DNA of 64,000 nucleotides from Nannocystis pusilla (GCF_049337375.1 NZ_JBMPIV010000001.1); one strand, 5' to 3'; positions 4,937 to 57,305 are shown, numbered from the stretch's first letter. Translations and numbers: made by a program. Notes: generated from the sequence alone by a model not told the origin.

Positions 4937-5018
4937 GGGGCATGTCGCTGCGGACATGCCCTTTTTCGCATGCTCGAAGGGACATGCCCGCAAGGGCATG
5001 TCCCGAAGCGCATGTAGA
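4937..5018. repeat. Cluster of 5-6 CATG-centred palindromic repeats (GGRCATGYCC), including a perfect 11+5+11 hairpin GGGACATGCCCgcaaGGGCATGTCCC
   Basis: Read directly: ggggcatgtcg, cggacatgccc, gggacatgcccgcaagggcatgtccc, gcgcatgtag. The cluster sits between convergent genes. Confidence 0.8.
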
Positions 5019-5087
5019 TCGTGGATGCGTCCCCGGCGGGCCTCGTCGAGGCGCCGCCGGGGACGTTCGCGCGCGAGAGCCGCTGGC

Positions 5088-7187
5088 TCAACCCGGCTGG
5101 ATCGAGCAGTAGCCGGCGATGCAGGTGCCTTCGCCCTCGCAGCAGGCGGCGTCGACCTCGCAGGAGTCGCCGATGTGCGAGCAGGTGTCGGGCTTGTCGG
5201 AGCACACGGCCGGGTCGCCGTAGCAGAAGCCGTCGCAGCAGTCGAAGCCGGCGTTACAGCCCTCGCCGAGCTGCTTGCACGGCGACAGCGCCCACTCGCC
5301 GCGCATGTTCGAGTTGTTCAGCTCCTGGCCGGGCAGCCAGAAGGCCGGGTGGCTCGGGTCGGTGCCGGGGGTGATGTTGCCGTCGATGGCGGTCACCCAC
5401 AGCTGCTTGCGCCGGGTGTTGGGGTTCGTGTCGGTGAGCGTGTTGCCGTACTTGCGCTCGGAGCCGATGATGAGCCACGAGTAGCCGCCGACCGAGACGG
5501 GCAGGAAGGTCGGCTCGTAGGTGGTCTGGTCCTGGCCCGGCTCGACGATGCCGAAGCCGTTGGCCTTGTCGAGGCGCACCACCGCGGAGCCGTCGAGGGA
5601 GGTCAGCCAGACCTCGGTGACCGCGGCGCGGGTGCGGGCCTGGTTGAGGCGGTTGAAGGCGATCCACTGCGAGTCGGGCGAGAAGGTCGGGAACGTCGTG
5701 GTCGTGAGCCCGGGGATCTTGTCGACGATCTGGTGGGCGTTGGCGAACGAGTTGGTCATCAGGTCGATGTCGACCAGCCACAGCTCGCTGTTGTTGAAGT
5801 CGAGCCAGTTGCCGTCGGTCTTGCGCGCGAACGCCAGCTTGGTCCCGTCGCTCGACCACACCGGGTGCTGCGGCTTGCCGCCGGGCACCGTGAGCTGCGC
5901 GAGCACGGTCGAGCTGTCGAAGGTGGTCAGCTTGAGCGCGCCGCTCTCGTCGGACTGGCCCCACACCACGTGCGAGCCGTTGGGGGCGATCGCCTGGAAG
6001 CCGGAGGCGATGTCGGGGAAGTACAGGACGTTGCCGGACGCGGCGTCGATGGTGCTCCACGGGCTGTAGCCGCCGTGGAAGCTGGCGGCGATCCGCGAGC
6101 CGTCCTTCGACACGCTGTGACAGGCGACGCACGTGACGCCCGGCGGCTTCTGCACGAACGGCTCGGGCGCGGTGGCGCCGATGTTGAGGCGCACGACGTT
6201 GCCGTTGTTGACCTCCCAGTAATAGACGGTGCCGGTCAGGTTGGCCGGGGCGATCGTCCACGTCTGGGTCTTGGCGAGGTAGGCCTTCTGACCGTCGAAG
6301 CGGGCGATGTCGACCTTGACGTCGCCCTCGGTCGAGGCGGTCAGCTTGAGCCAGATGTCGGTCGGCAGCTTCGGGAAGTCGAAGCGCGACGGCGGCGGCA
6401 CGTTGTGCCAGCCCTTGTACTCGAAGAACTCGCTGTAGGCGTGGATGTAATAGAGGTCGTTGGCGCCGCCGCCGTCCCACTGAATGGTGGGACCGATGAG
6501 GCCGCGCGGGAACACGGTCTTGTCGTACGGGTAGAGCAGGACCATCGACGGGTCGGGGTCGACCGCCATCGGGAACAGGTCCTTGGTCTCCGGCGGGACC
6601 GGGTTCGGCTCGGCGTTGAACAGCAGCTTGACGGTGGCCGTGGTGGTGGCCGCGGGCAGCTCGCCGGCGCCCTCGAAGGTGACGGTGCCGACGCCGCCGG
6701 CGAAGCCGGTCGCGGTGAAGGTGCCCGAGAGATCGCCGATGCCGGCGAGGTCGAGCTTGTCGTACGACCAGGTGCCGGTGACGGGGATCTTGATGCCCTT
6801 GTCGGTGACGCCGACGGCGCTGTACTGGGTGCTCGGCGGGATCACGCCGTCGACGACGGTGATGATCGCGTCGAGCGGATCGATCTCGATCGACACGACC
6901 ATGCCGGGGTCTTCGCCCGTGGTCGCAGTGGTCGCCGGATCGACCGTGGTGCCGTTCGTGGTGCCCGTGACCGGTCCGTCGGTCGGGTCGCCCATCGTGC
7001 CGCTGCCGCTCGGATCGGTGCTCGTCGGCGTCGAGGTGTCGGTGGTGTCGCTGCCGTTGCCGGTGTTGCCGGTGCTCAGCGAGGTGGAGGCGGAGATGAC
7101 GGAGCTGTCGCTTTCGGCCGGACGATCGGGGTTGCCGCAGGCGAGCAGGCCGGCGGCCGAGAGGAGCGCCACAAAGTTCCAACGCAT
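5088..7187 (-). CDS. Large secreted lipoprotein with a Thr/Ser-rich linker, TolB-like PD40 repeats, one CxxCH motif and a C-terminal Cys-rich module
   Basis: The true start is MRWNFVALLSAAGLLACG, ATG at 7187. The upstream 570 aa of the listed 1272-aa ORF are antisense of other genes. Motifs: CVACH, SPDSQWIAF / SSDGTKLAF (PD40-like), and C-terminal CNAGFDCCDGFCYGD...CCEGEGTC. Confidence 0.65.
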   Translation of the reverse strand: MRWNFVALLSAAGLLACGNPDRPAESDSSVISASTSLSTGNTGNGSDTTDTSTPTSTDPSGSGTMGDPTDGPVTGTTNGTTVDPATTATTGEDPGMVVSIEIDPLDAIITVVDGVIPPSTQYSAVGVTDKGIKIPVTGTWSYDKLDLAGIGDLSGTFTATGFAGGVGTVTFEGAGELPAATTTATVKLLFNAEPNPVPPETKDLFPMAVDPDPSMVLLYPYDKTVFPRGLIGPTIQWDGGGANDLYYIHAYSEFFEYKGWHNVPPPSRFDFPKLPTDIWLKLTASTEGDVKVDIARFDGQKAYLAKTQTWTIAPANLTGTVYYWEVNNGNVVRLNIGATAPEPFVQKPPGVTCVACHSVSKDGSRIAASFHGGYSPWSTIDAASGNVLYFPDIASGFQAIAPNGSHVVWGQSDESGALKLTTFDSSTVLAQLTVPGGKPQHPVWSSDGTKLAFARKTDGNWLDFNNSELWLVDIDLMTNSFANAHQIVDKIPGLTTTTFPTFSPDSQWIAFNRLNQARTRAAVTEVWLTSLDGSAVVRLDKANGFGIVEPGQDQTTYEPTFLPVSVGGYSWLIIGSERKYGNTLTDTNPNTRRKQLWVTAIDGNITPGTDPSHPAFWLPGQELNNSNMRGEWALSPCKQLGEGCNAGFDCCDGFCYGDPAVCSDKPDTCSHIGDSCEVDAACCEGEGTCIAGYCSIQPG

Positions 7188-8361: not shown

Positions 8362-9558
<1,197 letters not shown>

Positions 9559-9562: not shown

Positions 9563-10204
9563 ATGACCGACGCGAAGCAGCGGGCGGCCCGGGCGGCGCT
9601 GGAGCACGTGCCCGAAGGGGCCGTGATCGGGGTGGGCACCGGCTCGACCGTGGCCCACTTCATCGACGCGCTCGACCCGGCGCGCGTCGCTGGCGCGGTG
9701 GCCAGCTCGGAGCAGACGGCGGCGCGCCTGCGGGCCCGCGGGATCGCGGTGCTCGACCTCAACACCACCGGGCCGCTGCCGCTCTACGTCGACGGCGCCG
9801 ACGCCTGCGACCCGCAGCGCCGCCTGGTCAAGGGGGGAGGGGCGGCGCTGACGCGCGAGAAGATCGTGGCGGCGGCGGCGGAGCGGTTCGTGTGCATCAT
9901 CGATCCGGGCAAGCGGGTGCCGCGGCTCGGCGGCGTCCCGCTGCCGGTCGAGGTCATCCCGATGGCGCGCGAGCTGGTGGCCCGCACGATCGCGGCGATG
10001 ACCGGCGGCACCCCCGTGTGGCGCGAGGGCGTGGTCACCGACAACGGCGGCTGGATCGTCGACGTCCACGGCCTCGTGCTCGACGAGCCCGAGGCGCTCG
10101 AGGCGGCGCTGAATCAGGTCGCCGGGGTCGTCAGCGTCGGCCTGTTCGCCCGCCGGCCGGCCGACCTCGTGATCGTCGGCGACGATCCGCCGTGGTCGTG
10201 GTGA
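9563..10204 (+). CDS. rpiA: Ribose-5-phosphate isomerase A
   Basis: [27 protein letters not shown] matches the RpiA signature (VGVGTGSTAAHFIDAL). The protein is 213 aa. Confidence 0.85.
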
Positions 10205-10212
10205 AGTCCGAA

Positions 10213-10252
10213 TGGACATGTTCTCGAGGACATGCTCCATGCGGCATGTCCT
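10213..10252. repeat. GGRCATGYCC palindromic repeat cluster, 3 copies
   Basis: Read directly: tggacatgttc, aggacatgctcc, cggcatgtcct. The cluster sits between the convergent rpiA and a lipoprotein gene. Confidence 0.75.
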
Positions 10253-10262
10253 ACGGGCCACG

Positions 10263-11656: not shown

Positions 11657-13744
<2,088 letters not shown>

Positions 13745-13955
13745 GGCCCAGAATACGCCGGGCTCGCGCGCGGGCCCAGGGGTGGCCGTGAGGGGCCGAG
13801 CGCGGCGAGTCAGCGCGAGGACGGTCCTCCGGTCCATGTCGCAGGGGCGTCGATGCATCGCCGGTCGTATCGGCGGACCTTTGTCCACGCCGCGGACATC
13901 GATGATGCCGATGGAGAGGGGGGCGACGGTCGTCGCGTCGATTGCGCGGCTGGTC

Positions 13956-14615
13956 ATGCGGGCCTCGTTTTTCTATGTTCCGCGACCCGTGACCCTCCGC
14001 GATCTCATCCCCCCATGCATCGCTCTGGCCGCTTGCCTGAGCCTGGCCTGCTCCGACGACAAGGACCCGCTCGACTCGGCGACCAGCCCGACGGCGGCGA
14101 CGACGACGAATCCGAGCAACGGTTCGAACGCGAGCAACGCCTCCAACGCGTCCAACCCCAGCAACGCCACCGACGACTCCGACGGCACCGACGGCACCGA
14201 CGGCACCGCCACGACCGCGGCGACGGACACCGGCGTCGACGAGACGACCGGGCCGACCACGGGCGAGCCGACGGCCGGTACGACGGCGGCCGAGACGACC
14301 GCGGCCGAGACCACGAGCACGAGCGAGCCGCCGCCGACCGACGGACCGGGCGTACTGCCCGGCGAGGACGGCATGCAGGCGTTCTGCCGCCGCTACAAGG
14401 AGTGCGGCGGGACCTACTACGGCGACCAGCAGGAGTGCCTCGACGCGACCTACGACTACTGGGGCGACTGCCCGTCGCGCAAGGCGGCGCTCGACGAGTT
14501 CGGCGCCTGCATGTCGGAGCTCGACTGCGGCGAGTGGAGCCCCGACGCCTACAACCCGAACAGCACCCCGTGCGCCGAGCAGTGGGGCGGGGTCCAGTCG
14601 GCCGAGCCCTGCTGA
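13956..14615 (+). CDS. Hypothetical lipoprotein with a Thr/Asn-rich linker and a Cys-rich C-terminal domain
   Basis: Start is MRASFFYV...LSLACSDD, lipoprotein-like. The start at 13956 is divergent from the dehydrogenase gene. Confidence 0.5.
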   Translation: MRASFFYVPRPVTLRDLIPPCIALAACLSLACSDDKDPLDSATSPTAATTTNPSNGSNASNASNASNPSNATDDSDGTDGTDGTATTAATDTGVDETTGPTTGEPTAGTTAAETTAAETTSTSEPPPTDGPGVLPGEDGMQAFCRRYKECGGTYYGDQQECLDATYDYWGDCPSRKAALDEFGACMSELDCGEWSPDAYNPNSTPCAEQWGGVQSAEPC

Positions 14616-14624
14616 CGGACCGAA

Positions 14625-14679
14625 GGGACATGTCCCCCGAGACCGGTGCTCAAGGGCATGGCTCCGGGGACATGTCCGA
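14625..14679. repeat. GGRCATGYCC palindromic repeats, 3 copies including the perfect GGGACATGTCCC
   Basis: Read directly: gggacatgtccc, gggcatggctcc, ggggacatgtccg. The last copy overlaps the 3' end of the methyltransferase gene. Confidence 0.75.
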
Positions 14680-15924
14680 CGCGTCAGCCTCGATCCGGAA
14701 GTAGCGGAAGCCGCCGCCGCCGGTCCAGCCGGCCGCCGCGGTGACGCCGCTGGGATCGCGGCCGTCGACGACCGCGCGCAGGCGCGGGGCGATCAGGGTG
14801 TCGCAGTGCTCGCCGCGCTCGACGAGGATCCACCGCCGCCGCAGCTTGTGGGCGACCGCGCCGGTGGTGCCCGAGCCGGCGTAGACGTCGAGGACCCAGT
14901 CGCCCGGGCGCGTCGACAGCTCGAGCACGCGGCGCAGCAGGGCCTCGGGCTTCTTGCCCTTGGGGAAGGCGACGCCGCCCTCGTTGTGCAGGTTGTTGGA
15001 CAGCAGGTCGTCCCAGATGGTGGTGAGCGGCTCGCCGGCGACCCGCTGGCCGTCGATGAGCTTGAGCTTGGCGGCGTAGAAGAGGAGCCGCTCGCCGCGG
15101 ACGAAGTAGAAGTCGTCGTGGTCGTCGCGCTCCAAGCGGAGCACGACGTCGGGCTCGGCCTTCGAGCGGTCGATCATGGCCCGCGCGGCCGCGCTGACGG
15201 CGTTGTAGTCGGGCCGCGCGAGGCGGACGACGGCGTCGGCGTGGGCGAGCACGAATTCGTCGAGGCGCTCCGGCTCGGCCCGCGCGAGCCGCTGGGCCGC
15301 GCGCTCGCCCAGGCCGCAGGCGTCGGCGAAGGCGCGCATCAGGGTGACGAGCCGCCACTCGGCGTGCGGCGCGGCGCGGTCGACGATGAACTGGGCGTAC
15401 CGCGGGTCGCGCTCGCGGGCGGTGTACAGCCGCTGCGGGGCCCAATGCGCGCGGTCCTTGCAGTAGACGAGGACGAAGTTGGAGGTCGTGACGCAGCCGG
15501 GGTTTATCGCCTTGTGGCCGGTGGGCGCGCCCTGCTTGAAGGTGACGACCGAAACGCGGTTGGCCCGGCCGAAGATGTCGTCGAGCAATACGATCAGGTA
15601 GCCGAGCTCGTTGTCGTCGATGTGGACGAACAGGGTGCCGTCGGCGGCCAGCAGGTCGCGCAGGACCGTGAGGCGCGCGCGCATGTCGGCCAGCCAGCGC
15701 GCATGCTCGATGCCGTCGTCGTAGTGGGCGAAGGCGCGGCCGGTGTTGTACGGCGGGTCGATGTAGACGCAGCGGATCTTGCCGGCGAACTCGGGCCCCA
15801 GCGCGCGCAGGGCCGCGAGGTTGTCGCCGCGGATCAGGCGGTTGTCGTAATGGTCGCCCGCCACCTCGGGGCCGGCCGCGCGGTGGGACAGCGCGGGTGC
15901 CTCGACGAGGGGGCGCGGGTCCAC
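14650..15924 (-). CDS. Solitary beta-class DNA methyltransferase (N6-adenine or N4-cytosine; Type III Mod-like architecture)
   Basis: Motif IV (DPPYN) lies near the N-terminus and motif I (VLDVYAGSGTTGAVA) near the C-terminus, with a roughly 280-aa target-recognition spacer between them. No res or other restriction gene is adjacent. Confidence 0.8.
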   Translation of the reverse strand: MDPRPLVEAPALSHRAAGPEVAGDHYDNRLIRGDNLAALRALGPEFAGKIRCVYIDPPYNTGRAFAHYDDGIEHARWLADMRARLTVLRDLLAADGTLFVHIDDNELGYLIVLLDDIFGRANRVSVVTFKQGAPTGHKAINPGCVTTSNFVLVYCKDRAHWAPQRLYTARERDPRYAQFIVDRAAPHAEWRLVTLMRAFADACGLGERAAQRLARAEPERLDEFVLAHADAVVRLARPDYNAVSAAARAMIDRSKAEPDVVLRLERDDHDDFYFVRGERLLFYAAKLKLIDGQRVAGEPLTTIWDDLLSNNLHNEGGVAFPKGKKPEALLRRVLELSTRPGDWVLDVYAGSGTTGAVAHKLRRRWILVERGEHCDTLIAPRLRAVVDGRDPSGVTAAAGWTGGGGFRYFRIEADASDMSPEPCP

Positions 15925-21613: not shown

Positions 21614-21698
21614 TGCCCAGGAGACCACGAGGGGCCGCCGCGGGCAAGGGGGCGCGGCCCTCGACCGCGCCGGGGAGCGGCGGCGAGGATGCCTCTCA

Positions 21699-21722
21699 GG
21701 GCATGTCTTGAAAGACATGTGT
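21699..21722. repeat. Perfect palindrome CATGTCTTgaAAGACATG of the GGRCATGYCC family
   Basis: Read directly: gggcatgtcttgaaagacatgtgt. Confidence 0.75.
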
Positions 21723-22004
21723 ACGCCGACGCGACGGTCCGAGGCGACCGTCAGTCGCTTCATGGAAGTCACACCGGAATAGCGACGGCTACCCGGGGCC
21801 GCTTGAGTTGAACGCGGTCGGAGGCGCGGACCGGCGAGGTCTCGCGGCGCTCGTCGCCGGGGCGCGCAGGAGCGAGGCGTCCGCCCAGGGGCCCGTGGTC
21901 ATGTGAGGGCCGGGGAGCGAGAGGCGCGGGCGGCCACGAGAGGACGGATGGGCAGGAGAGGGGGCCAGCGACCGTCGCGCTCGCTCTCGCCTGGCTCTCG
22001 GGAC

Positions 22005-22026
22005 ATGTCCCGAGAGGGTTGTACCG
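22005..22026. repeat. Perfect 22-bp palindrome CTCTCGGGACATGTCCCGAGAG
   Basis: Read directly and self-complementary over 22 nt. It lies downstream of the beta-propeller lipoprotein gene. Confidence 0.85.
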
Positions 22027-24550: not shown

Positions 24551-24680
24551 GTGATTGAAACCCCGAGACATGTTTTAATGGACATGTCTTGATGGATATT
24601 AATCACCGAACACCTGCGACGCACGGCTCGAGGTCGTTCGGGGCATGTCCGAAGGGACAGTGTCCATTCGGACATGTAAT
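24551..24680. repeat. Dense cluster of at least 5 GGRCATGYCC-family palindromes within a locally AT-rich core, flanked by the inverted repeat GTGATT...AATCAC
   Basis: Read directly: gagacatgtttt, tggacatgtcttg, ggggcatgtccg, gggacagtgtcc, cggacatgtaat. gtgattgaaa (24551) pairs with ttaatcac (24600). Confidence 0.8.
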
Positions 24681-24681
24681 G

Positions 24682-26385
24682 TCATTGCGCGAGGAACCAC
24701 GGAGTGGCCACGGCGGAGCGGCACTGCCAGTTGAAGCTGCGCATGTGCGGGACCTCGCCGAGGTCGCCGAAGCCGGCGGCCAGGTCCTCGGCGGTCTGGC
24801 GCAGCTCGGGGTCGGCGGCGCCGTCGTGGTAGTAGGCCATGGCGACGACGTAGGCGCTCTCGCCCCAGTGCTCGTCGTAGTCGTCGACGGCGCCGTTGCC
24901 GTCGCCGACGCCCATCCAGTAGAAGGGCTTGCCGTCGGGGTCGAGGCCGTCGCGGGCGATGACGCGGCCGAGCTTGACGATCGAGGCGCGCGCGGCGTCG
25001 GCCTGGGCGCCGGGCGACTCGGTGGCGTACTGGTCGAGGCCGTCGGCCAGGATGGCGCTGAGCCACGGCGAGCAGCCCCAGAAGCCGAACTCCTCGTCGG
25101 CGGCGACGTCGGTGTGGGCGAAGCAGCGGGCGTCGGGATCGTCGTAGCCGGGCGGGTAGCTGGCCTGCACGTCGAGGTAGGCGGTGACCGCCGCGTCGGC
25201 GAGGTCGCGGAACTGCTGGGCCTGATCGTCGGAGACGTTCATCGCCCACACGTAGGCGAGCAGGCCGAAGCCGGCGTGGCGCTCGGTCCAGAAGCTGGCG
25301 CCGCCCTCGTAGACGGGGTCCCACAGGTCGGCGTAGGCCTCGGCGACGTCCTCGGCGCTCTCGCGGAAGCGGTCGTCGCCGGTCATGAGGTAATGCAGGG
25401 CCATGTTCTGCGTATAATAGTACTTGGCGTCGCCGGTCTTGCCGGGTACGCCGATGGCGGTGTCGGGGCCCTGACCGCTGAGGCCGTCGCGGTAGATGGT
25501 GGTCTCGAGGTAGGCGGAGCGCAGGGTCGAGAGGTCGCCGCGGCGGGCGTGGCCGCGCCAGTGGGTGGTGCCGCGATCGTACAGCCAGACGTCGGCGGAG
25601 TCGTTGGCGCCGAGGAAGGCCTCGACGTTCCATTCGTCGTAGTCGCACTTGTCGGACCAGGCCTGCCCGGGCGTGCCCTCGGCGGCGGCGGCGGTGCCGA
25701 GCGGACCGGCGAACCCGCTGGTCGTGAGCCACTCGGCCGGCAGCAAGGCCCACACGTTCGGGCCGGTGTCGACGAGGGTGTCGGCGACCGGGACGAGGTT
25801 GACCTCGCCGGCGGCAGGGGCGGCATTGAGGGCGACGTCGAGGTCGGTCTCGCCGTCGATCGCCAGGTCGAGCTGGATCTGGACGCTACGCCAGCTGCCG
25901 TCGGGGTGGCGCGCGAGGCCGCGGAGCGCGGTGGCCAGCTCGGTGCCGGCGTGGTGGACCTGGACCTGGGTGTCGTCGGTGAGGACGCCGGGCGCCAGGG
26001 GGACCGCGAAGTTGATCCGCTGCTCGCCGGTGACGCCCTCTTGTGGGATCAGGTGGACGACGACGTTGACGGTCTGGCCGCCGGTGGTGGTGTCGCCGGT
26101 CTCGGTCTCGTCGGTGGTGGTGGTGCCGTCCGTCGTGGTGACAGGCCCGTCGGTAGGATCCGGGGTCGGGCCGTCGGTGGCGTCCGGAGGCTCGCTCGTG
26201 GTCGAGGAGGTCGGCGCTGGATCGTCGGTGGCGACCCCGGTGGGCGCCCCGGTGGTCGGGCCCGAATCGGTGGTCGGGTCGGTGCCGGCGGCCGTGTCGG
26301 TGGTGTCGCCGGAATCGCCGGGACAGGCCGCACAGAGGCACGCGGCGGCGAGTATCCCCATTGATGGCAGTCGAATCACTGGCAT
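24682..26385 (-). CDS. Hypothetical secreted lipoprotein with a Thr/Pro-rich linker and a large globular domain, possibly polysaccharide-active
   Basis: MPVIRLPSMGILAAACLCAACPGD is a signal peptide. The protein is 567 aa, with a roughly 100-aa T/P/D-rich linker. Confidence 0.55.
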   Translation of the reverse strand: MPVIRLPSMGILAAACLCAACPGDSGDTTDTAAGTDPTTDSGPTTGAPTGVATDDPAPTSSTTSEPPDATDGPTPDPTDGPVTTTDGTTTTDETETGDTTTGGQTVNVVVHLIPQEGVTGEQRINFAVPLAPGVLTDDTQVQVHHAGTELATALRGLARHPDGSWRSVQIQLDLAIDGETDLDVALNAAPAAGEVNLVPVADTLVDTGPNVWALLPAEWLTTSGFAGPLGTAAAAEGTPGQAWSDKCDYDEWNVEAFLGANDSADVWLYDRGTTHWRGHARRGDLSTLRSAYLETTIYRDGLSGQGPDTAIGVPGKTGDAKYYYTQNMALHYLMTGDDRFRESAEDVAEAYADLWDPVYEGGASFWTERHAGFGLLAYVWAMNVSDDQAQQFRDLADAAVTAYLDVQASYPPGYDDPDARCFAHTDVAADEEFGFWGCSPWLSAILADGLDQYATESPGAQADAARASIVKLGRVIARDGLDPDGKPFYWMGVGDGNGAVDDYDEHWGESAYVVAMAYYHDGAADPELRQTAEDLAAGFGDLGEVPHMRSFNWQCRSAVATPWFLAQ

Positions 26386-28163: not shown

Positions 28164-28232
28164 GGGATATGTTCTTGGGGGCATGTCCGTGGTGACATGT
28201 TCATTCGGGCATGTCTATAGGGTCATGTCTGG
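28164..28232. repeat. GGRCATGYCC-family repeat cluster, 5 copies in about 70 bp
   Basis: Read directly: gggatatgttctt, ggggcatgtccg, gtgacatgttcat, gggcatgtctat, gggtcatgtctgg. The cluster sits between the convergent maiA and TetR genes. Confidence 0.8.
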
Positions 28233-36978: not shown

Positions 36979-37069
36979 CGCTCGCCTCTGTTGCAGCGGC
37001 CGCCGAGATCCGGCGGAAAATTACGCAGGGCGGGAGGTATGATCATACCTCCCGCCGATGCCGTCATTC

Positions 37070-37936: not shown

Positions 37937-38005
37937 GATCGTTGGTTCTCTTTCGTTGCACTGTGACGAGGCGCCCCAAGGTGGCGCCTGCCTCGGCGGG
38001 GGCGC

Positions 38006-39409: not shown

Positions 39410-39488
39410 GTCATCGTCTCCAGGCTGGCATCACGGACGGAGGCGCCCCGGGCCGCGAGGACCGGAGCGCCCATGGTGCGACGAGGCG

Positions 39489-40886
39489 TCAGTCGGCGCG
39501 GCCGATCTCGACGCTCTCGAGGATGCCGAGCGCGTCCGGGATCTGGACGGCGGCCGAGTAATAGAGGCTGACCAGGTACGAGATGATCGCCTTCTCGTTG
39601 ATGCCCATGAAGCGCACCGACAGGCTCGGCTCGATCTCGTCGGGGATGCCCTTGTGGTGCAGGCCGATGACGCCCTGGTTCTTCTCGCCGACGCGCATCA
39701 GCAGGATCGAGGTGGTGCGCGTGTCGGAGATCGGGATCTTGTTGCAGGGGAAGATCGGGACGCCGCGCCACGACGGGACGTGATGGCCGCCCAGGTCGAT
39801 CGGCGTCGGGTAGATGCCCGCGCGGTTGCACTCGTGGCCGAACGCCGCGATGGTCCGCGGGTGGGCGAGGAAGAAGGCCGGCTCCTTCCACACCAGCGCC
39901 AGCAGGTTGTCCATGTCGTCCGGCGTCGGCGGGCCGCTGCGGGTGTGGATCCGCTGCTTCAGGTCGGCGTTGTGAAGCAGGCCGAACTCGTGGTTGTTGA
40001 TGAGCTCGTGCTCCTGGCGCTCCTTCAGCGCCTCGACGGTCAGGCGCAGCTGCTCCTGCGTCTGGTTCATCGGGTCGTTGAACAGGTCGGCCACGCGCGT
40101 GTGGACCTGCAGGACGGTCTGGGCGACGCTGAGCTCGAACTCCCGCGGCGAGGTCTCGTAGTCGACGAAGGTGCCGGGCAGCACGGGCTCGCCCGAGTGG
40201 CCGGAGGCGACCTCGATCGCGGCCTGGCCGCTGTTGTCCTGCTTCTTCTGCGAGCGCGCCTTGAACTCGTCGACGTGCTTGCGCAGCGACGGGTGCTGGG
40301 CGACGAGCTCCTCGAAGGACGCCTGCGACAGCGTCAGGACGGTGCCGGCGGTCACCGCCTTGGCGGTGAAGTCCCAGTAGTCCTGCGACTCGAGGATCGC
40401 CTGGTACGAGTAATGGTCACCGTCGGCCAGGGTCTCGAGGACGCTCTCGTCGCCGTACTTGCCGGTGCCGATCTTGTTGACCTTGCCGTGGGCGATGAGG
40501 ACCATCTCGTTGGCCTCGTTGCCCTTCTGCGTCAGGACGTCGCCCGCCTTGAACTCCTTCTGCACGAATCGACCGGCGAGGACGTTCAGCACCTCGAGGT
40601 CCTCGTAGCCGCGGAACAGCGGCAGCTCGGTCAGCTCCAGCGGCACGACCTGGATCTTGGCGCCGGTGTTGTAGAAGGTGACGCGGCCGTCGCCGACGGC
40701 GTAGCTCAGGCGACGATTGAGGCGGAAGACGCCGTTGACGTGCACCCAGGGCAACAATTTGAGCAGCCAGCGGGACGAGATTCCCTGCATCTGCGGCGGG
40801 GACTTCGTCGTCGTGGCGAGCTGGCGCGCTGCAGCCGTCGAGAGGCTGGTCTGCTGATCATTTCCCGGCTTTCCTGCGATCGACAT
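39489..40886 (-). CDS. Cyclic-nucleotide-binding-domain protein of the Family 2B encapsulin shell type ('cnb'), paralog 2
   Basis: The start was re-set to MSIAGKPG (ATG at 40886) by alignment with the paralog's N-terminus MSIFEKSG...[15 protein letters not shown]. The protein is 465 aa with a cNMP-binding-like region ([18 protein letters not shown]). Confidence 0.7.
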
Positions 40887-41900: not shown

Positions 41901-43562
41901 TCAGCGGACCATCAGCCAGCGGGCGGCGCCGGGCTTGTGACAGTCGTGGACGGGGTTGACCGCGTCGAGGGTGTTGGGGTCGGTGGCGAAGGTGTCGGCG
42001 GAGGGGCTGACGACCGCGGCGCCCTTCCACGGGTAGTTGACGAGGCCGCAGCCGTACTGGTTCTGGGCGACCTCGTCGATGTGCCAGGCGCCGGCGCAGC
42101 CCTCGGAGGTGCCGACGTGCCAGGTGCAGATGGTCTTGTTCTGCACGAAGTTGCCCTTGAGGCGGGCCTCCTTGTAGAGCACCTGCGACCAATTGAAGCA
42201 GCTGTTCGGTCCGCCTTGACCGTTGAACAGGTTGCCGGCAGCGGTCAGCAGGTAGTCCTCGCCGCGGCAGTCGATGCGCATGTCGGTCGAGAGGTCGCGC
42301 AGGGCGGTCATCTGCGCCTTGGACAGGCGATGGCGGGCGTTGGCAGGGTCGGCGGCGTTGACGGGGAGGTCGTTGTAGAGCGCCTTGCCGATGGTCTGGG
42401 CGCCGAGCGGGCTGCGCTCGAGCAGGGTCCAGCCGCCGCCGGCGGTGACCATGTCGCAGAAGACGGAGTAGCCGGCCTGGCCACCGACGCCGTCGGGATC
42501 GACGACGTAGACGCCGCTCGGGAGCATCGGGACGACCGCTTGCAGGTCCTCGCAGGTGGTGGGGACGGTGCAGGCGCTGCTGCAGCCGTCGCCGTCGATG
42601 TCGTTGCCGTCGTCGCACTGCTCGACGCCGGTGTGGATGACGCCGTCGCCGCAGGTGGCGGCCTTGCAATCGGCGAGGCAGGCGTCATTGTCGTCGGCGT
42701 CGGCGTCGTCGCATTCCTCGACGCCGGCCTGCACCTCGCCGTCGCCGCAAATGGCGGCCTTGCAATCGGCGAGGCAGGCGTCGCTGTCGTCGGCGTTGCC
42801 GTCGTCGCACTGCTCGACGCCGTCCTGGACGTGGCCGTCGCCGCAGCTGGCGGTATGGCAGGTGGAGAGGCAAGCGTCGCCGTCGTCGGGGTTGCCGTCG
42901 TCGCACTGTTCGACGCCGGCCTGGACGTGGCCGTCGCCGCAACTGGCCGCGAGACAGGTGGAGAGGCATGCGTCGGTGTCGTCGGCGTCGGCGTCGTCGC
43001 AGGCCTCGCCGTTCTGGACCGCTCCGTCGCCGCAGGTGGCGAGGGCGCAGGTGTTGCTGCAAGCGTCGTCGTCGACGTCGTTGGCGTCGTCGCAGGCCTC
43101 GACTCCGGCGTGGACGAGGCCGTCGCCGCACACGGCCTCGGCGCAAGCGAGGGTGCAGTTGCCGTCGTCGGCGTTGCCCGGGCCGTCGTCGCAGGCCTCG
43201 CCGTCGTCGACCTCGCCGTCGCCGCAGAAGGGGGCGGGGCCGGTGCTGGTGGCGTCGGTGGTGGTGGTGGTGTCGCCGTCGGTCGTGGTGGTGGTGGTGT
43301 CGCCGTCGGTCGTGGTGGTGGTGGTGGTGGTGTCGCCGTCGGTCGCCACGGTCGCGCTGTCGGTGCCGACCGTCGAGGTGCCGCTCGTGGTCGGCGCGCC
43401 GGTGGTCGGCGCCGGTTCGCTCGTGCTGTCACCGCTGCTCGTCGCCTGCGTCTCCATGCCGGTCGCGTCCGTCTCGCTGGCCGCGACGCCGCTGTCCCCA
43501 CACGCCGCCGCGGCCATCGCCGCCGCGAATGCACCCCTGCTCGCCCATACACACAGTTTCAT
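41901..43562 (-). CDS. Lipoprotein with a Thr-rich linker, 8 tandem 'Myxococcus cysteine-rich repeats' (TIGR02232-like, CGDGxVxxGEECDDGN) and a C-terminal fibrinogen-related domain
   Basis: The start is [28 protein letters not shown] at 43562. Repeats such as [24 protein letters not shown] occur 8 times. The C-terminus has [17 protein letters not shown], a fibrinogen C-domain motif. Confidence 0.7.
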
Positions 43563-43741: not shown

Positions 43742-43755
43742 CGGGACATGTCCTG
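43742..43755. repeat. GGRCATGYCC palindrome copy (CGGGACATGTCCTG)
   Basis: Read directly, between the SDR gene's 3' end and the next gene's start. Confidence 0.7.
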
Positions 43756-43778: not shown

Positions 43779-44549
43779 TCACCAGGGAGTCTCGCCGCTC
43801 GCTTCCACGAACCGGCCGGAGACGGCGTCGGGGCCGCGCAGCACGTGCTCGACCGGCAACCTCGCGCCTTGCTCGGCGGTCAGGAAACCATTGTGCCCGG
43901 TCAAGTCGGTCTTGACGTAGCCCGGGCTCACCGAGGTCACGACGATCGGCGTGCCGCGCAGCTCCTGGGCGAGCTGGACGGTGAGCATGTTGAGGGCCGC
44001 CTTGGAGGCGTTATAGCCGATCAGTCGCGCCGAATAATAGGGCGACTTCGGATCGCCGTTGAGGGTGAGCGAACCGAGGGAGCTGGACAAATTGACGATC
44101 CGCGCAGCCGGCGAATTTCGCAGCAGAGGGAGCATCGCCTGCGTCACCGCCAGGGTGCCGACGAAGTTGGTGTTCATGATCCTGCGGACGGCCGCGGGCG
44201 AGGCGGCGCCGGGCGGACCGTCCTCGGCGTCGACGATGCCGGCGTTGTTGACGAGGATGTCGAGCCGACCGTGCTCGGCGGTGATCGATGCGGCAGCGGC
44301 CGCGATGCTCGCCTCGTCGTCGAGGTCGATCCGGACCGCCTGTGCTGCCAATCCCTGGCGCGCCAGATCGGCGACCGCTGCGCTCGCCCGGCCGCGATCG
44401 CGAGCGCCGAGGATGACGAAGACGCCGGCTTGGGCGAGCTGGCGGGCGATCTCGAGGCCGATGCCCTTGTTCGCGCCGGTGACGAGCGCGACGCGCGTCG
44501 TCGTTCGCTGCGGATGGATTGTGTCGTTCCCAGGAATCTCGTCGGTCAT
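43779..44549 (-). CDS. SDR family oxidoreductase
   Basis: ALVTGANKGIGLEIA (TGxxxGIG), NNAG and YxxxK (YNASK). The start was set at MTDEIPG. It is divergent from the LysR gene. Confidence 0.75.
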   Translation of the reverse strand: MTDEIPGNDTIHPQRTTTRVALVTGANKGIGLEIARQLAQAGVFVILGARDRGRASAAVADLARQGLAAQAVRIDLDDEASIAAAAASITAEHGRLDILVNNAGIVDAEDGPPGAASPAAVRRIMNTNFVGTLAVTQAMLPLLRNSPAARIVNLSSSLGSLTLNGDPKSPYYSARLIGYNASKAALNMLTVQLAQELRGTPIVVTSVSPGYVKTDLTGHNGFLTAEQGARLPVEHVLRGPDAVSGRFVEASGETPW

Positions 44550-46788: not shown

Positions 46789-46811
46789 GGATGTCCTTCG
46801 AGACATGCCCG
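46789..46811. repeat. Degenerate GGRCATGYCC-family pair (GGATGTCCttcgaGACATGCCC) in a divergent promoter region
   Basis: Read directly. Confidence 0.5.
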
Positions 46812-46856
46812 CCGCCGGTGGACACGGCGCAGCAGGGGCACTAGCCTTCGCAGCCG

Positions 46857-47858
46857 ATGTTCGCTCGCGCGCTTCAGCTCGTCACCCTCGCGTCGCTCGT
46901 CACCTCGGGGCTCGCCTGCGTGAGCCACTCGTCGACGCCGATGACGGGCCGGGTGGAGGTGCCGCTGTCGGAGCGGCGGATCGGGCAGTACATCTCGTCG
47001 GGGTGGTCGTTCGATACGTCGAGCTTCTGGATCGAAGGGCCCGAGGGAGTGGTGGTGATCGATGTGCAGTTCCTGCCGTCGGTCGCGGCGGAGGTCATCG
47101 CGGCGGCCGAGCGCGTGACCCGTAAGAAGGTGGTGGCGGCGATCGTGCTGCACGCGAACCCCGACAAGTTCAACGGCACCGCGACGTTCCAGGCCCGCGG
47201 GATCGAGGTGTGGACCGCCGAGCAGGTGCTGGCGCGGATCCCCGAGGTGTTTGCGAAGCGCACGGAGGCGTTCGCCGAGCGCTACGCGCCCGACTGGCCG
47301 ACGTCGGTGCCGCAGCCGCGCAGCTTCGGCGCGGCGACGACGACGCTGAAGCTGGCCGGCCTCGAGCTGAAGGCGCACGTGCTCGGGCCGGGCTGCAGCC
47401 CGGCCCACGTGGTGATCCAGTGGGAAGACCACGTGTTCGTCGGCGACCTGGTGGCCAACAAGGCCCACGCGTGGCTCGAGATCGGCGAGCCCGAGGCGTG
47501 GCTGCAGCGGCTGGCGGAGATCGAGGCGATGCAGCCGAAGCACGTGCACCCGGGCCGCGGCCGCTCGGGCGGGCCGGAGCTGGTGGCGGATCAGCGCGAG
47601 TACCTGCAGACGGTGCTGTCGCTGGTGGCGGCCGAGAAGCCGACGCTGCCGCCCGATCCGGCCGCGGTGCTGCGGGTCCGCGCGGCGCTCGAGCGCCGCT
47701 ACGAGGGCTATCGCTTCCCGGTGTTCCTCGAGATCGGACTGCCGGCGGTGTGGCGCCGAATGGCGTCGGGGAACGCGACGGAGAGCGCGCCGGAGGGGCC
47801 GGCGGAGGTGCCGGGCGAGGAGCAATCGGCGGGGCCCGGCCCGACGTCGCGGCCGTAG
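46857..47858 (+). CDS. Lipoprotein with a probable MBL-fold metallo-hydrolase domain
   Basis: MFARALQLVTLASLVTSGLAC is a signal peptide with lipobox. There is a VLHANPDKF-type metal-binding region and a later His/Asp. The family assignment is tentative. Confidence 0.5.
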   Translation: MFARALQLVTLASLVTSGLACVSHSSTPMTGRVEVPLSERRIGQYISSGWSFDTSSFWIEGPEGVVVIDVQFLPSVAAEVIAAAERVTRKKVVAAIVLHANPDKFNGTATFQARGIEVWTAEQVLARIPEVFAKRTEAFAERYAPDWPTSVPQPRSFGAATTTLKLAGLELKAHVLGPGCSPAHVVIQWEDHVFVGDLVANKAHAWLEIGEPEAWLQRLAEIEAMQPKHVHPGRGRSGGPELVADQREYLQTVLSLVAAEKPTLPPDPAAVLRVRAALERRYEGYRFPVFLEIGLPAVWRRMASGNATESAPEGPAEVPGEEQSAGPGPTSRP

Positions 47859-47861
47859 CGG

Positions 47862-48190
47862 ACGGCGAAGCGCGGAGGTCCGACCGGCGGGGTCGAATCC
47901 GACGTCGCAGCCGTGGCGGACGTCGAAGCTCGGAGCGATCGATCAGCAGGGTCGAAGCCGACGTCGCAGCGGTCGCGGACGGCGAAGTTCGGAGGTCCAA
48001 CCGGCCGTGGTCGTAGCCGACGTCGCAGCCGTGGTGGACGTCGAGCTCGGGCCGATGGAGGCTCAGCCGGCGCGAGCCCGACGCCGCAGCCGTAGCGGAC
48101 GTCGGAGCTCGGGCCGATGGAGGCTCAGCCGGCGGGGTCGAAACCGACGTCGCAGCCGTAGCGGACGTCGAGCTTGGCGGCAGGGTCGGC
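47862..48190. repeat. GC-rich tandem minisatellite, about 5.5 copies of a roughly 60-bp unit, each containing two CGACGTCG palindromes; the last copies encode the C-terminus of the downstream vWA gene
   Basis: Read directly: units of the form CGGACGkCGAAGCkCGGAG..GGGTCGAAnCCGACGTCGCAGCCGTrG are repeated head-to-tail from the MBL gene stop to 48190. Confidence 0.75.
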
Positions 48191-52799: not shown

Positions 52800-52844
52800 G
52801 GCGGTCGCCGGCCTCGGTGTTGTCTCCGGATGCCCTCGATAGTC

Positions 52845-54295: not shown

Positions 54296-54320
54296 TGTCT
54301 CTCGGGACATGTCATCGGAG
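54296..54320. repeat. Degenerate copy of the 22-bp CTCTCGGGACATGTCCCGAGAG palindrome (TCTCTCGGGACATGTCATCGGAGAG)
   Basis: Read directly, inside a roughly 700-bp apparently non-coding region. Confidence 0.6.
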
Positions 54321-55323: not shown

Positions 55324-55447
55324 GAACGGCCCGGCTCGTGCCGGTGAGCCACGGCGTCGAGGACGGGGGCGGGGAACGGGCGTAAGCCGTTCTTGAAGAC
55401 AGACGACACCGCCCGCCGCTTCGGCGCAGTCTCATTATATGGCTTCA

Positions 55448-55477
55448 AGGACATGTCGATATGGACATGTCCTTGGC
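55448..55477. repeat. Two GGRCATGYCC palindromes (AAGGACATGTCgatatGGACATGTCCTTGG)
   Basis: Read directly, in an AT-rich spacer between convergent genes. Confidence 0.8.
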
Positions 55478-55483
55478 GACTCG

Positions 55484-57076
55484 TCAGGGCGGGAGCTGGC
55501 TGCAGAGGAAGGCGTCCTCGGCGATCATCGTGCGACCGAGCGCGTCGGTGAGGGTCGCGCGCACCCGCGCCTGGGTGTTCACGGTGCAGGTGCCGTGGGT
55601 GGTCGCGGGGTTGTTGGCGTGGGCCGGGTCGACCGCGGCGTTCAGGACGCCCTGCCAGGTGGCGGTCCACGGTCCGAGGCCGGTCGGCGAGGAGGTGCAG
55701 GTGTAGCCGCCGCCGCCGGTCGACTCGCACGTGATCGACAGGGTGAAGGTAGAGGCCTGCACGGCGCCGAACGCATGGACCATACCGGCGCCGCAGTTCG
55801 TGCACGGGATGGGCTTGGCGGTCTTCACGAGGATCTGCTTGATCTGCGACGCCGTCAGCGCGGGGTTGCGGGCGCGCATCAGGCCGACCACGCCGCTCAC
55901 GTGCGGCGCCGCCATCGAGGTGCCGGCCCAGTGGCGGTGGCACTGCGGGCTGGTCTGGGTGTAGGGGATCCATGTCGACACGACGCCGTGGGTGCCGGTC
56001 TGGGTCGGATCGGTCGGGCAGCCGATGAGGGCGCCGTTGCCGGCCTGGCCGTTCACCGCCGAGCCGCCGGGTGCGGCGATCGTGATGCCGGGGTACTTGG
56101 CGAGGGGGTTGGACTGCAGGGCGTAGGGCTCGGCGTTGCCGAACTCGTCGACGGCGGTGACCACGATCAGATCGGGGTTCTGAGCGTGACACCTCGGCCA
56201 CAGATAATTGGAGGCGTTGAAGTCGGGGCTCGGCGGCCAGGTGGTCCCGCTGTCGCCGTTGCCCGCGGCGACCACCACCACGGTGCCGGCCTCCGAGGCC
56301 TTGTCGATGGCGTCCTTGAGGTCGGCCGGGCAGGGCTGCGCGAGGTTGCCGATGCTGATGTTGATGACATCGGCGCGCGAGCCGGCCTGCACAATCTCGC
56401 CCCGGCCGTTGTCGGTCGGCAGGCCGGCCGCGTAGCGGATCGCGCGGGCGAGCAGCGTGGTGGTCGGCTCGTTCATGCCGGGGTCACCGACCTGGGCGCC
56501 GCCGCCGGACTGCGCGACGCGGAGCGGGCGGAGCTTGCAATTCCAGCAGATGCCCGCGCCGCCGCTGCCGTTGTTGGCGGCCGCGGCGAGGGTGCCGGCG
56601 ACGTGGATGCCGTGGTGAAAGTCCCCGGGGTCGGTCGGGTCGGGGTCGCCGACGAAGAAGTCGTAGCCGCTCGACCAGGTGAGCTCCGAGTGGGGGAGCG
56701 TGCCGCTGTCGGCGATGGCGATGGTGACCGCGGGCGAGCCGGTGGTCAGCCACCAGGCCTCGGGCAAGGAGATGGCGCCGTAGTGCCACTTCTGCCCGGA
56801 GTGGTAGAGCGGATCGTTGGGCTCGAGGGTCAGCGAGCGGGGCTCGATCTCGTCGTCGGACGGATCTGCGATTTCGTCGACGTCGGCCTCGGGCTCGCCG
56901 TCGCAGGCGGCGCCGCCGGCGAGCAGGAGCGGGAGCAGGAACGACCGCGCGCGCAGGGGCGGAGCGAAGGACGCGTGGGGTCTCGCGGTGGAGAGCCGGA
57001 TGTCGGGAGGGTCAGGAGTGCCGGGCGCGAAAGCGAAACCGAGCAGGGTGCGAAGCGAAGGCGGGCGAAGGGGCAT
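55484..57076 (-). CDS. Subtilisin-like serine protease (peptidase S8), secreted
   Basis: The catalytic triad motifs are AIADSG (Asp), HGIHVAG (His) and GTSMAAPHVSG (Ser). There is a long N-terminal leader with a hydrophobic/lipobox segment LLPLLLAGGAAC. The start ATG 57076 lies inside a GGGCATGTCC element, so the start is uncertain. Confidence 0.8.
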   Translation of the reverse strand: MPLRPPSLRTLLGFAFAPGTPDPPDIRLSTARPHASFAPPLRARSFLLPLLLAGGAACDGEPEADVDEIADPSDDEIEPRSLTLEPNDPLYHSGQKWHYGAISLPEAWWLTTGSPAVTIAIADSGTLPHSELTWSSGYDFFVGDPDPTDPGDFHHGIHVAGTLAAAANNGSGGAGICWNCKLRPLRVAQSGGGAQVGDPGMNEPTTTLLARAIRYAAGLPTDNGRGEIVQAGSRADVINISIGNLAQPCPADLKDAIDKASEAGTVVVVAAGNGDSGTTWPPSPDFNASNYLWPRCHAQNPDLIVVTAVDEFGNAEPYALQSNPLAKYPGITIAAPGGSAVNGQAGNGALIGCPTDPTQTGTHGVVSTWIPYTQTSPQCHRHWAGTSMAAPHVSGVVGLMRARNPALTASQIKQILVKTAKPIPCTNCGAGMVHAFGAVQASTFTLSITCESTGGGGYTCTSSPTGLGPWTATWQGVLNAAVDPAHANNPATTHGTCTVNTQARVRATLTDALGRTMIAEDAFLCSQLPP

Positions 57077-57210
57077 GTCCGGGAGTTGCCCGGAGCGGCG
57101 CAACGCTGACAGACGTCGATCGAAAGCGCGGAGGCGGCGCGCTGCGGGGGCCACCCTGCGGGACTCGCCGGGTTCGTCCCTCCTGGGGCTGCTCGGGTAA
57201 TGCTCGCCCT

Positions 57211-57305
57211 GAAGGACACGTGCCGGGGCGAAGTGGGGTCCGGGGCCGAGGCGCGCGATGTCCTATCGAACATGTTTCATGGGGCATGTCCCGAAGGACA
57301 TTCAC
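57211..57305. repeat. GGRCATGYCC-family repeat cluster, 4-5 copies
   Basis: Read directly: gaaggacacgtgccgg, gatgtcctatcgaacatgttt, ggggcatgtcccg, aaggacattcac. Confidence 0.7.

Follow-up and report, generated by a model that had tools for sequence, protein, structure and literature searches.

Phased arrays of a 14-bp palindrome with a CATG junction at gene 3′ ends in Nannocystis

Gene 3′ ends in Nannocystis carry gap-free arrays of a 14-bp inverted repeat in rigid register, whose neighbouring units are complementary to each other and can fold together as hairpins. The arrays are confined to this one genus, persist at orthologous positions within it, and conserve their CATG core above all else. 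We give about an even chance to the reading that they are Nannocystis-specific, REP/BIME-like extragenic palindromes, which as 3′-end hairpins would serve termination or mRNA stabilisation.

Results

Motif, unit and register

The window is the whole 64,000-nt stretch of Nannocystis pusilla DNA that was analysed. A first-pass annotation had claimed strong enrichment of the palindrome GGRCATGYCC, with at least 30 copies, and both statements hold. Exact matches number 12 against 0.47 expected from dinucleotide shuffles, or 33 against 11.7 when up to one mismatch is allowed, and a weight matrix trained on other Nannocystis loci only finds 30 units at 12 bits or above, versus 1.8 in shuffles. The unit is a 14-bp inverted repeat, TGYCC-N4-GGRCA. 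Given that neighbouring units abut head to tail without a gap, CATG is the junction between them (GGRCATGYCC).

Successive CATG cores keep a spacing of 14 bp exactly. Pairs in the window number 15 at 14 bp, 8 at 28 bp and 5 at 42 bp, with a background of 1-2; in the Nannocystis sample, 518 pairs are 14 bp apart, versus 12 that are 13 bp and 22 that are 15 bp apart. Furthermore, array ends coincide with complete TG...CA half-sites; neither this nor the spacing had been noticed in the first pass. The spacer is invariably 4 nt, the register is rigid across up to 7 units, and weak units retain both CATG and phase. In 0.9 Mb of Nannocystis DNA there are 271 arrays, a count that would scale to some 2,000 in a genome of 12 Mb. 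Roughly, an array occurs every 5 kb and a unit every 1-2 kb. The following features were found in the window, none with an assigned strand.

4937..5018: six-unit array (CATG at 4941, 4955, 4969, 4983, 4997, 5011) between a convergent Ser/Thr kinase-TPR gene (+, stop 4930) and PD40 gene (-, stop 5088); units 1-2 and 4-5 pair up as two hairpins, with 3 and 6 weak; MFE -58.4, z -7.1; 5 units in the orthologues of N. exedens and N. sp. ILAH1
10205..10260: three phased units with flanking half-sites (CATG at 10217, 10231, 10245; an additional CATG off phase at 10238) between convergent genes, beginning 1 nt past the rpiA stop codon; arrays in the same place in 5/7 Nannocystis species
14624..14679: four unit positions (CATG at 14629, 14657, 14671; 14643 degenerate); unit 1 pairs with unit 4, and units 3-4 overlap the final 30 nt of a methyltransferase coding sequence (14650-15924, -); kept in 7/7 species
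21690..21724: two units (CATG at 21702, 21716) between co-directional genes, on the 3′ side of gene 22055-23476 (-)
21995..22016: single unit within the perfect 22-bp palindrome ctctcgggaCATGtcccgagag, 39 nt past the stop codon of gene 22055-23476 (-)
24564..24603: two AT-rich units and one degenerate (CATG at 24569, 24583) in the convergent region between genes 24054-24404 (+) and 24682-26361 (-); this intergenic region, folded whole, has z -7.2
24640..24683: three units, GGGGCATGTCC-GAAG-GGACAgTGTCC-ATTC-GGACATGTAA, with a 1-nt insertion in the middle junction; directly adjoins the stop of the gene at 24682 (-)
28170..28232: four to five units (CATG at 28182, 28196, 28210, 28224) between a convergent GST gene (+, stop 28160) and TetR gene (-, stop 28223); C-to-T decay, with G.U pairs remaining on the + strand only; fold -34.6 kcal/mol on the + strand, -11.3 on the - strand
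43742..43755: single unit GGGACATGTCC, 24 nt past the stop of SDR gene 43779-44549 (-)
46789..46812: one weak unit on its own, TGTCCTTCGAGACATGCCC; region divergent
54296..54316: likewise one weak unit, TGTCTCTCGGGACATGTCA; the gap is long and apparently divergent
55447..55477: doublet AAGGACATGTCGATATGGACATGTCCTT in a convergent region, a hairpin with a stem of ~12 bp, ending 6 nt before the stop codon of a subtilase gene (55484, -); -22.1 kcal/mol, z -5.9; top weight-matrix score, 19.8 bits
57069..57082: lone unit GGGGCATGTCCG, located at, or immediately upstream of, the 5′ end predicted for the subtilase gene
57205..57300: loose half-unit (GGACAcgTGCC at 57213) plus an array
57259-57300: array proper of the preceding feature, TGTCC-tatc-GAACATGttt-CATG-GGGCATGTCCC-GAAG-GACA, stopping 1 nt short of the stop codon of gene 57302-57793 (-)

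The first-pass annotation had listed 12 sites as arrays of 2-6 copies. All of them are present where it placed them, although those at 43742, 46789 and 54296 are single weak units. A unit at 57071-57080 was absent from its list.

Placement relative to genes

The claimed bias towards intergenic DNA and gene 3′ ends, often between convergent genes, is borne out. Outside coding sequence, the window and six orthologous loci together have 5.4 units per kb, versus 0.42 per kb within it, a density 13 times lower; six arrays of the window lie between convergent genes and three just 3′ of a co-directional gene. After ascertained regions were removed, the share of intergenic regions with an array was 58-69% for convergent ones (≥40 bp), 22% for co-directional ones (≥150 bp) and 0-14% for divergent ones, and at unbiased loci an array is present in 22 of 42 convergent regions. 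Over the 0.9 Mb of Nannocystis DNA, this comes to about half of the convergent regions, ~20% of the long co-directional ones and almost none of the divergent ones. Within co-directional regions, arrays start at a median of 19-25 nt past the upstream stop codon and end 170-210 nt ahead of the next start codon; the median distance of hairpins from the stop is 18-25 nt. The excess in convergent regions is approximately what two independent 3′ ends would give. Given that only about one fifth of long co-directional regions have an array, the arrays are not the universal 3′ signal.

Hairpins and complementarity between units

Hairpins had been claimed for several arrays, and most arrays of the window indeed fold with z-scores of -3.3 to -7.2. 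The 3′ flanks with arrays reach -32.8 kcal/mol versus -21.7 when shuffled (11 kcal/mol more stable), while flanks without arrays reach -30.6 versus -28.2. Adjacent units fold together into hairpins with stems of 10-19 bp and variable loops. Neighbouring units are complementary beyond composition, with 22 AC-GT and 17 GT-AC pairs against 8.9 expected for each; same-orientation pairs are depleted, asymmetric units giving 39 alternating versus 11 same-orientation neighbours. Between-unit covariation (z 3-4) reaches positions outside the conserved core, and units two apart are similar as reverse complements, spacers included (z 4.8). Pairing inside a unit shows no covariation. It should be noted that between-unit complementarity could stem from the way arrays are generated, and not from selection.

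No U-tract follows the arrays, T remaining at or below 35% at every position past the last unit in the sense orientation. In the window, terminators of the canonical hairpin-plus-T-tract type are no more frequent than chance predicts, and the terminator scan flagged no array. Moreover, the excess of G.U over A.C tracks the locally G-rich strand (270 vs 140) and not the sense strand, on which stable tetraloops are not enriched either. Since these RNA-specific tests gave no sense-strand signal, a role at the DNA level may hold.

Spread among species and conservation

When the genomes of 185,579 species were scanned, 120 stretches matched, 107 of them from Nannocystis, and four close relatives (72-79% Lhr identity) have no arrays. 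The family is restricted to the genus Nannocystis, which the first pass had also missed. It had asked whether copy positions are conserved in related genomes; they are, with arrays kept at orthologous 3′ ends in 7/7, 5/7 and 3/3 species, and array positions are stable across the genus. Unit number differs between species and register is constant; some arrays, e.g. L105, contain fresh 14-bp direct duplications. In aligned orthologous arrays, 2.8% of CATG positions differ, against 16% for GG/CC and 30% for spacers, which makes CATG about 10 times more conserved than the spacers.

Discussion

Proposed hairpins at transcript 3′ ends

Among the candidates of the first-pass annotation, a REP-like element or U-tract-less terminator fits best, given the placement ~20 nt past stop codons, the stable hairpins and the missing U-tract. 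A module consists of two strong adjacent junctions with their flanks, foldable into a hairpin with a stem of 10-19 bp and a 4-nt loop, and convergent gene pairs usually have two such modules with a weak unit between them. Placed within the 3′ UTR, a few to ~25 nt past the stop codons, the hairpin would most likely define and protect the transcript 3′ end in either direction, whether as a U-tract-less terminator aided by NusG or Rho or by blocking 3′-to-5′ exonucleases. Judged from sequence, these hairpins probably end most transcripts, and the RNA would be the active form.

A plain hairpin does not account for the invariant 4-nt spacer, for CATG outlasting the more stabilising GG/CC, or for weak units that keep CATG and register. 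We infer that the CATG core has a dedicated reader, either a sequence-specific factor or an amplification enzyme. The further idea that the arrays are the cis-element of a transcription-unit-end system unique to Nannocystis, in which a dedicated protein reads the units in 14-bp register, is one we hold to be rather doubtful. If true, that protein would read duplex DNA or an RNA stem and act by termination, 3′ processing or supercoil insulation, as a bacterial counterpart of mTERF or Reb1, or of the histone stem-loop/SLBP pair.

Other readings

The arrays could instead be duplex-DNA platforms, on which a dimeric protein binds each unit or junction and polymerises along the phased array at gene 3′ ends. 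The candidates are nucleoid or insulator proteins, roadblock terminators and, by analogy with BIME-2, DNA gyrase; such a platform would either ease or contain supercoiling between transcription units that converge, or else prevent read-through. We regard this as unlikely. The fixed spacer, the register rigid over up to 7 units and the complete half-sites at array ends suit it, as do the variable loops and the retention of CATG and phase in weak units; the stem sequence itself is conserved, not pairing alone, the G.U and tetraloop tests gave no sense-strand signal, arrays favour convergent regions, and BIME-2 binds gyrase (PMC2817692). Sites for a dimeric protein had been among the earlier suggestions, and the invariant spacer and ultra-conserved CATG do favour a sequence-specific reader. 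However, units are not preferentially self-symmetric (160 symmetric versus ~186 expected), GGACATGCCC and GGACATGTCC are equally common, and the covariation between neighbours and beyond the core points to base pairing, which protein read-out does not need. Furthermore, the convergent excess is close to that of two independent 3′ ends, co-directional arrays hug the upstream stop codon although a topological element needs no such placement, and no protein emerged as a candidate. A selfish or neutral repeat without host function, i.e. a palindrome mobilised by a transposase (RAYT-like or other) or a self-expanding minisatellite, which spread in the Nannocystis ancestor and survives at 3′ ends as harmless insertions, is in our view improbable. 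Its appeal lies in the absence of arrays from close relatives, in the varying unit number and fresh 14-bp duplications, in a 42-bp super-period and units terminating in TG...CA, and in mismatches that track mutational skew, like neutral decay. However, a dead element would decay uniformly, and here CATG is 97% kept at stable positions while spacers diverge by 30%. Spacers are also diverse, the commonest making up 5.6%, so there is no master copy; orthologue comparisons revealed no target-site duplications, and a conserved head or flank of the GT(A/G)G type is lacking, the flank profile consisting of TGYCC and GGRCA half-sites only. A tblastn search with E. coli RayT gave no RAYT-like ORF at E <0.7 in the 0.9 Mb sampled, a weak test that covers <1% of each genome.

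The suggested relic of a tiny MITE finds no positive support: the arms are 5-bp TG...CA only, comparison of orthologues showed no flanking duplications, positions are stable across species, and no master copy exists. That the motif is a DNA-uptake-type signature (cf. Neisseria DUS, Haemophilus USS), with inverted pairs tolerated in terminators, seems very improbable to us. The very high unit density, taxon specificity and the occurrence in 3′ hairpins, as with DUS pairs, are in keeping with it; DUS and USS, however, are neither palindromic nor tandemly phased as this motif is, the density of the motif is 13 times lower in coding sequence, and the rigid 14-bp arrays would go unexplained. Hardly any credence is due to the notion that RCATGY or CATG is a modification or restriction target of the neighbouring methyltransferase, a link raised in the first pass. 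The core does contain CATG/RCATGY, and an orphan PF01555 methyltransferase gene adjoins array 14624..14679 in conserved synteny in all 7 species. The best matches of this enzyme, however, lie among type III Mod subunits and enzymes of the CcrM type, which do not indicate CATG specificity, and chance adjacency to an array is to be expected when gene 3′ ends bear one every ~5 kb. In addition, CATG outside arrays is not depleted (223 observed versus 163 expected), and methylation leaves the 3′-end placement and between-unit complementarity unexplained.

Comparison with known systems

Neisseria DUS and Haemophilus USS are genus-specific 10-12-mers with thousands of copies, often forming terminator hairpins downstream of genes. 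They differ from the Nannocystis arrays in being asymmetric, unphased, frequent within genes and tied to a competence receptor; over-representation that includes coding sequence is not seen for the Nannocystis motif. In cyanobacteria, STRR form short-period tandem arrays of heptamers outside coding sequence, and the HIP1 element is a short palindrome. Like these two, the Nannocystis repeats are short, lineage-specific and very abundant, but STRR are direct heptamer repeats without a palindromic unit, and HIP1 is dispersed singly and common in coding sequence. The operator arrays of ribbon-helix-helix proteins (MetJ met-boxes, omega heptads) consist of 2-6 short symmetric units, gap-free and in strict register. 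The Nannocystis units share this shortness, close packing and strict register, whereas MetJ and omega operators sit at few promoters or centromeres and not at thousands of 3′ ends, and have no between-unit base-pairing covariation.

The I-shaped terminators proposed for high-GC bacteria resemble the arrays in placing a GC-rich hairpin soon after the stop without a U-tract, but their stem sequences are arbitrary, while the Nannocystis stem is a conserved family motif. Measured against a canonical terminator, the arrays have the hairpin near the stop and lack the 7-9 nt U-tract directly 3′. Termination by U-tract-less hairpins is disputed, and mycobacterial RNA polymerase requires the U-tract at intrinsic terminators (PMC3993855).

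Finally, REP/BIME elements have been assigned roles in mRNA stabilisation, in aiding Rho-dependent termination and in binding gyrase, IHF and Pol I, and RAYT/REP has been proposed as confined to Gammaproteobacteria (PMC2817692). With RAYT they are known from Enterobacteria, Pseudomonas, Stenotrophomonas and Xanthomonas, whereas Nannocystis is a myxobacterium. Unlike REP/BIME (~20-40 nt), the Nannocystis unit measures 14 bp, has no linker and keeps a strict register, and it is without the GT(A/G)G head or other conserved single-stranded flank of REP. Both are taxon-specific, with regularly spaced units of alternating orientation at gene 3′ ends, and REP/BIME are never found in promoters (PMC2817692). 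The Nannocystis arrays, like REP/BIME, are high-copy (>100 per genome by extrapolation), extragenic, imperfect palindromes that form stem-loops.

Motif enrichment and phasing in the window

At a G+C content of 72%, the window contains 12 exact matches to GGRCATGYCC versus 0.47 expected from dinucleotide shuffles, and 33 versus 11.7 when one mismatch is allowed, which bears out the enrichment reported in the first-pass annotation. A weight matrix trained solely on other genomes gives 30 matches of at least 12 bits in the window, compared with 1.8 in shuffles, in agreement with the 30 or more copies claimed. The twelve sites originally named all exist, but those at 43742, 46789 and 54296 are single weak units; a further unit, absent from that list, lies at 57071.

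The feature that had been overlooked is an exact 14-bp CATG spacing. CATGs are found at 4941, 4955, 4969, 4983, 4997 and 5011 in the six-unit array between the convergent Ser/Thr kinase-TPR and PD40 genes (the kinase/PD40 array), and further phased series run through 10217, 10231 and 10245 and through 28182, 28196, 28210 and 28224. When every CATG in the window is listed, spacings of 14, 28 and 42 bp occur 15, 8 and 5 times, respectively, over a background of 1-2. CRISPR was rejected because the period is far too short, and an assembly artefact because the arrays occur in at least nine independent assemblies. Sites of the parS, Noc or SlmA type were set aside, as to our knowledge none matches in sequence.

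Anatomy of the arrays

In a sample of 914 kb (107 loci plus the window), CATG-to-CATG spacings of 14, 28, 42 and 56 bp were counted 518, 286, 189 and 88 times, against 12 times for 13 bp and 22 times for 15 bp, and 271 arrays of two to seven units are present. The unit profile in this sample is v-GG-R-CATG-Y-CC-b followed by two free positions. Given that arrays end in complete half-sites (xxTGTCC on the left, GGACAg on the right) and that TGTCC-N4-GGACA units also occur in isolation, the unit is best written as TGYCC-N4-GGRCA, with CATG as the junction of abutting units.

Strong units are paired, such that a typical five-unit array reads strong-strong-weak-strong-strong and six-unit arrays carry one more weak unit. 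The asymmetric units GGACATGCCC and GGGCATGTCC equal the symmetric ones in frequency, and neighbouring asymmetric units alternate in orientation in 39 cases versus 11 with the same orientation. Complementarity between neighbouring units exceeds the expectation from composition (z 3-4), positions beyond the core included, and a covariation analysis of array units detected no base-pair covariation within a unit. Between units two apart, the similarity is to the reverse complement and takes in the spacers (z 4.8), while between units three apart it is direct (z 3.1); this pattern indicates a 42-bp super-period. Spacers are diverse, the commonest making up just 5.6% of all, and hence there is no master copy.

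Tandem repeats of longer period were also seen. At 3825-4337 of a locus from Nannocystis sp. RBIL2 (L097), each copy of a repeat of about 95 bp consists of one gaaCATGtcc unit followed by ttcgaccacct, and this repeat is a longer-period relative of the CATG family. Two tandem repeats located at or between gene 3' ends in the window, at 30140-30357 (66-bp unit, 3.2 copies) and 47841-48171 (59-62-bp unit, 5.5 copies), share no sequence kinship with it.

Gene context

Gene calls came from a codon model trained on the window and are consistent with the real annotations of six orthologous loci. The earlier placement of arrays at gene 3' ends, often between convergent genes, holds up: once ascertained regions are excluded, an array is present in 58-69% of convergent intergenic regions that are 40 bp or longer. 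For co-directional regions the share is 22% at lengths of 150 bp or more and 2-9% below that, and for divergent ones it is 0-14%. In unbiased loci, a phased pair is present in 22 of 42 convergent, 5 of 70 co-directional and none of 40 divergent regions. Two independent 3' ends, each with a probability near 0.3, would yield roughly the excess seen in convergent regions. Within co-directional regions, arrays start a median of 19-25 nt past the stop codon of the preceding gene, and 170-210 nt separate them from the start codon that follows. The genes beside the arrays are a mixture of housekeeping and accessory genes unrelated to one another.

Adjoining the kinase/PD40 array, 11-48 nt past the PD40 stop codon, is a generic GC-rich hairpin (5038-5077, GTCCCCGGCGG...CCGCCGGGGAC). 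It is kept in N. sp. ILAH1; in other species, isolated TGTCC-N4-GGACA units stand in its place at the 3' end of the PD40 gene.

The first-pass annotation had also considered a link to the methyltransferase gene beside one array. This gene (14650-15924, -) encodes an orphan 424-aa enzyme with a PF01555 domain, closest to type III Mod subunits (6k0w, EcoP15I) and CcrM-type enzymes; the last 30 nt (10 codons) of its CDS overlap units 3-4 of the array, and its synteny is kept in all seven Nannocystis genomes compared. The proposed link finds no support, as nothing connects the enzyme, with these nearest types, to CATG, and with one array per ~5 kb the adjacency is unremarkable.

Distribution and evolution

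Two adjacent units (GGRCATGYCC-N4-GGRCATGYCC) were used as the query in a scan of one genome per species across 185,579 species, which returned at least 120 matches. Nannocystis accounts for 107 of the 120 matches listed (N. exedens, pusilla, punicea, bainbridge, radixulma, sp. RBIL2 and three MAGs); the remaining 13 come from unrelated phyla, each a single hairpin without further units. Viral contigs gave four isolated matches, all single hairpins, and no arrays. Every 20-kb Nannocystis locus holds 4-11 phased CATG pairs. Neither a phased CATG pair nor GGRCATGYCC was found in 24 kb from each of four relatives picked via the Lhr helicase (72-79% amino-acid identity, versus 85-91% within the genus). 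One of these relatives (L133) carries isolated cTGTCCC-N2-4-GGGACAg hairpins within a 61-bp tandem repeat, which sits after the fpg gene; these may be an ancestral form. A literature search on the motif returned p53 papers only, and none on Nannocystis repeats or this element.

In a seven-species orthologous region, the array between a 209-aa gene and the methyltransferase gene is present in all seven species, and that after rpiA in five, its loss going together with a change of the neighbouring gene. Three of three species retain the kinase/PD40 array, with five CATGs identical and the flanks variable. Between species, unit number and spacers vary while the CATG register is constant, and some arrays contain fresh 14-bp direct duplications (e.g. 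L105, a sampled locus). In aligned orthologous arrays, differing positions amount to 2.8% in CATG, 16% in GG/CC, 24% in R/Y and 30% in spacers, although core conservation is inflated because the motif itself served to ascertain part of this set. The contrast between CATG and GG/CC holds nonetheless, as do the unbiased examples.

Folding and RNA-level tests

The hairpins noted earlier were recovered, with the arrays in the window folding at z -3.3 to -7.2. The 70-nt 3' flanks with arrays average -32.8 kcal/mol (63% GC) versus -21.7 when shuffled, compared with -30.6 versus -28.2 for 3' flanks without arrays. No T-tract follows the arrays in sense orientation; terminators made of a hairpin plus a T-tract are about as frequent in the window as expected by chance, and no array coincides with one. 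Stable tetraloops (UUCG, GNRA) show no sense-strand enrichment. An apparent sense-strand bias of G.U over A.C (76 versus 50) vanished after correction for local GC skew, the excess going with the locally G-rich strand (270 versus 140) and not with the sense strand. It should also be noted that the + strand has a strong, uniform positive GC skew over the whole window (cumulative +3.1), although most genes lie on the - strand, and that stem mismatches within arrays go along with it, with G.T pairs on the G-rich strand.

Orthologous arrays show nine double changes that keep Watson-Crick pairs between units and none within units, a weak count given the many single pair-breaking changes and given that double transitions preserve pairing automatically. 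For the array conserved in seven species, RNAalifold was uninformative, the stem being almost invariant and partly coding.

Other features of the window

A group of genes on the - strand at 35830-40790 resembles a cluster of the 2-methylisoborneol type with encapsulins:

35830-36978, - strand: terpene synthase gene
37070-37936, - strand: SAM methyltransferase gene
38006-39409 and 39489-40790, - strand: two paralogues, each with a cNMP-binding domain and a SrpI-like family-2 encapsulin shell domain

Sernc350 was the sole family matched in an Rfam scan (38868-39370 and 40360-40848, + strand); both matches are simply antisense to the two encapsulin-like genes, and neither relates to the arrays. 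RpiA (9563-10204, +) shows 100% identity with a protein of Nannocystis pusilla. Its nearest relatives outside the genus are from Lysobacteraceae (70-74% identity) rather than myxobacterial, which suggests horizontal acquisition of rpiA in Nannocystis. The gene at 41901-43517 (-) contains 96-bp coding repeats and specifies a Cys-rich DUF4215 repeat protein; similar repeats occur in many Nannocystis loci (L018, L049, L064, L079 and L107). An 89-nt tRNA-Val call by ARAGORN at 13071-13159 (+), inside a GSDH-like CDS (11657-13957, -), is probably a false positive.

Interpretation and comparison with known systems

The most likely role of the arrays is to supply 3'-end hairpins, a reading to which we give about even odds. 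They are like U-tract-less terminators in position and shape, a class whose efficacy is disputed (PMC3993855). The main rivals are that the arrays form a DNA-level platform for a protein, which we regard as rather unlikely, or a functionless selfish repeat, which seems quite improbable. The covariation favours base pairing, whether in RNA or in single-stranded DNA, over independent protein sites; the fixed spacer of 4 nt and the pre-eminence of CATG point to a putative sequence-specific reader or a generator/amplification enzyme. Such a putative CATG reader or amplification enzyme could be sought directly with simple DNA or RNA bait. As about half of convergent Nannocystis gene pairs end in a 14-bp phased palindrome, the arrays provide a ready-made operon-end predictor for these 11-13 Mb genomes, in which natural products are sought, and could serve as a terminator part when these high-GC organisms are engineered.

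The suggestion that the repeats are REP-like proved apt: they are abundant, extragenic, palindromic, regularly spaced and alternating in orientation, as REPs and BIMEs are described (PMC2817692). Unlike those elements, the Nannocystis arrays are without a GT(A/G)G head, and no RAYT gene was found in the sampled Nannocystis DNA, which is a small fraction of each genome. Taken together, the arrays are a real, abundant REP/BIME-like family that is specific to the genus and has a 14-bp architecture of unusual compactness and rigidity. They carry the REP/BIME phenomenon into Myxococcota in a far tighter and stricter form.
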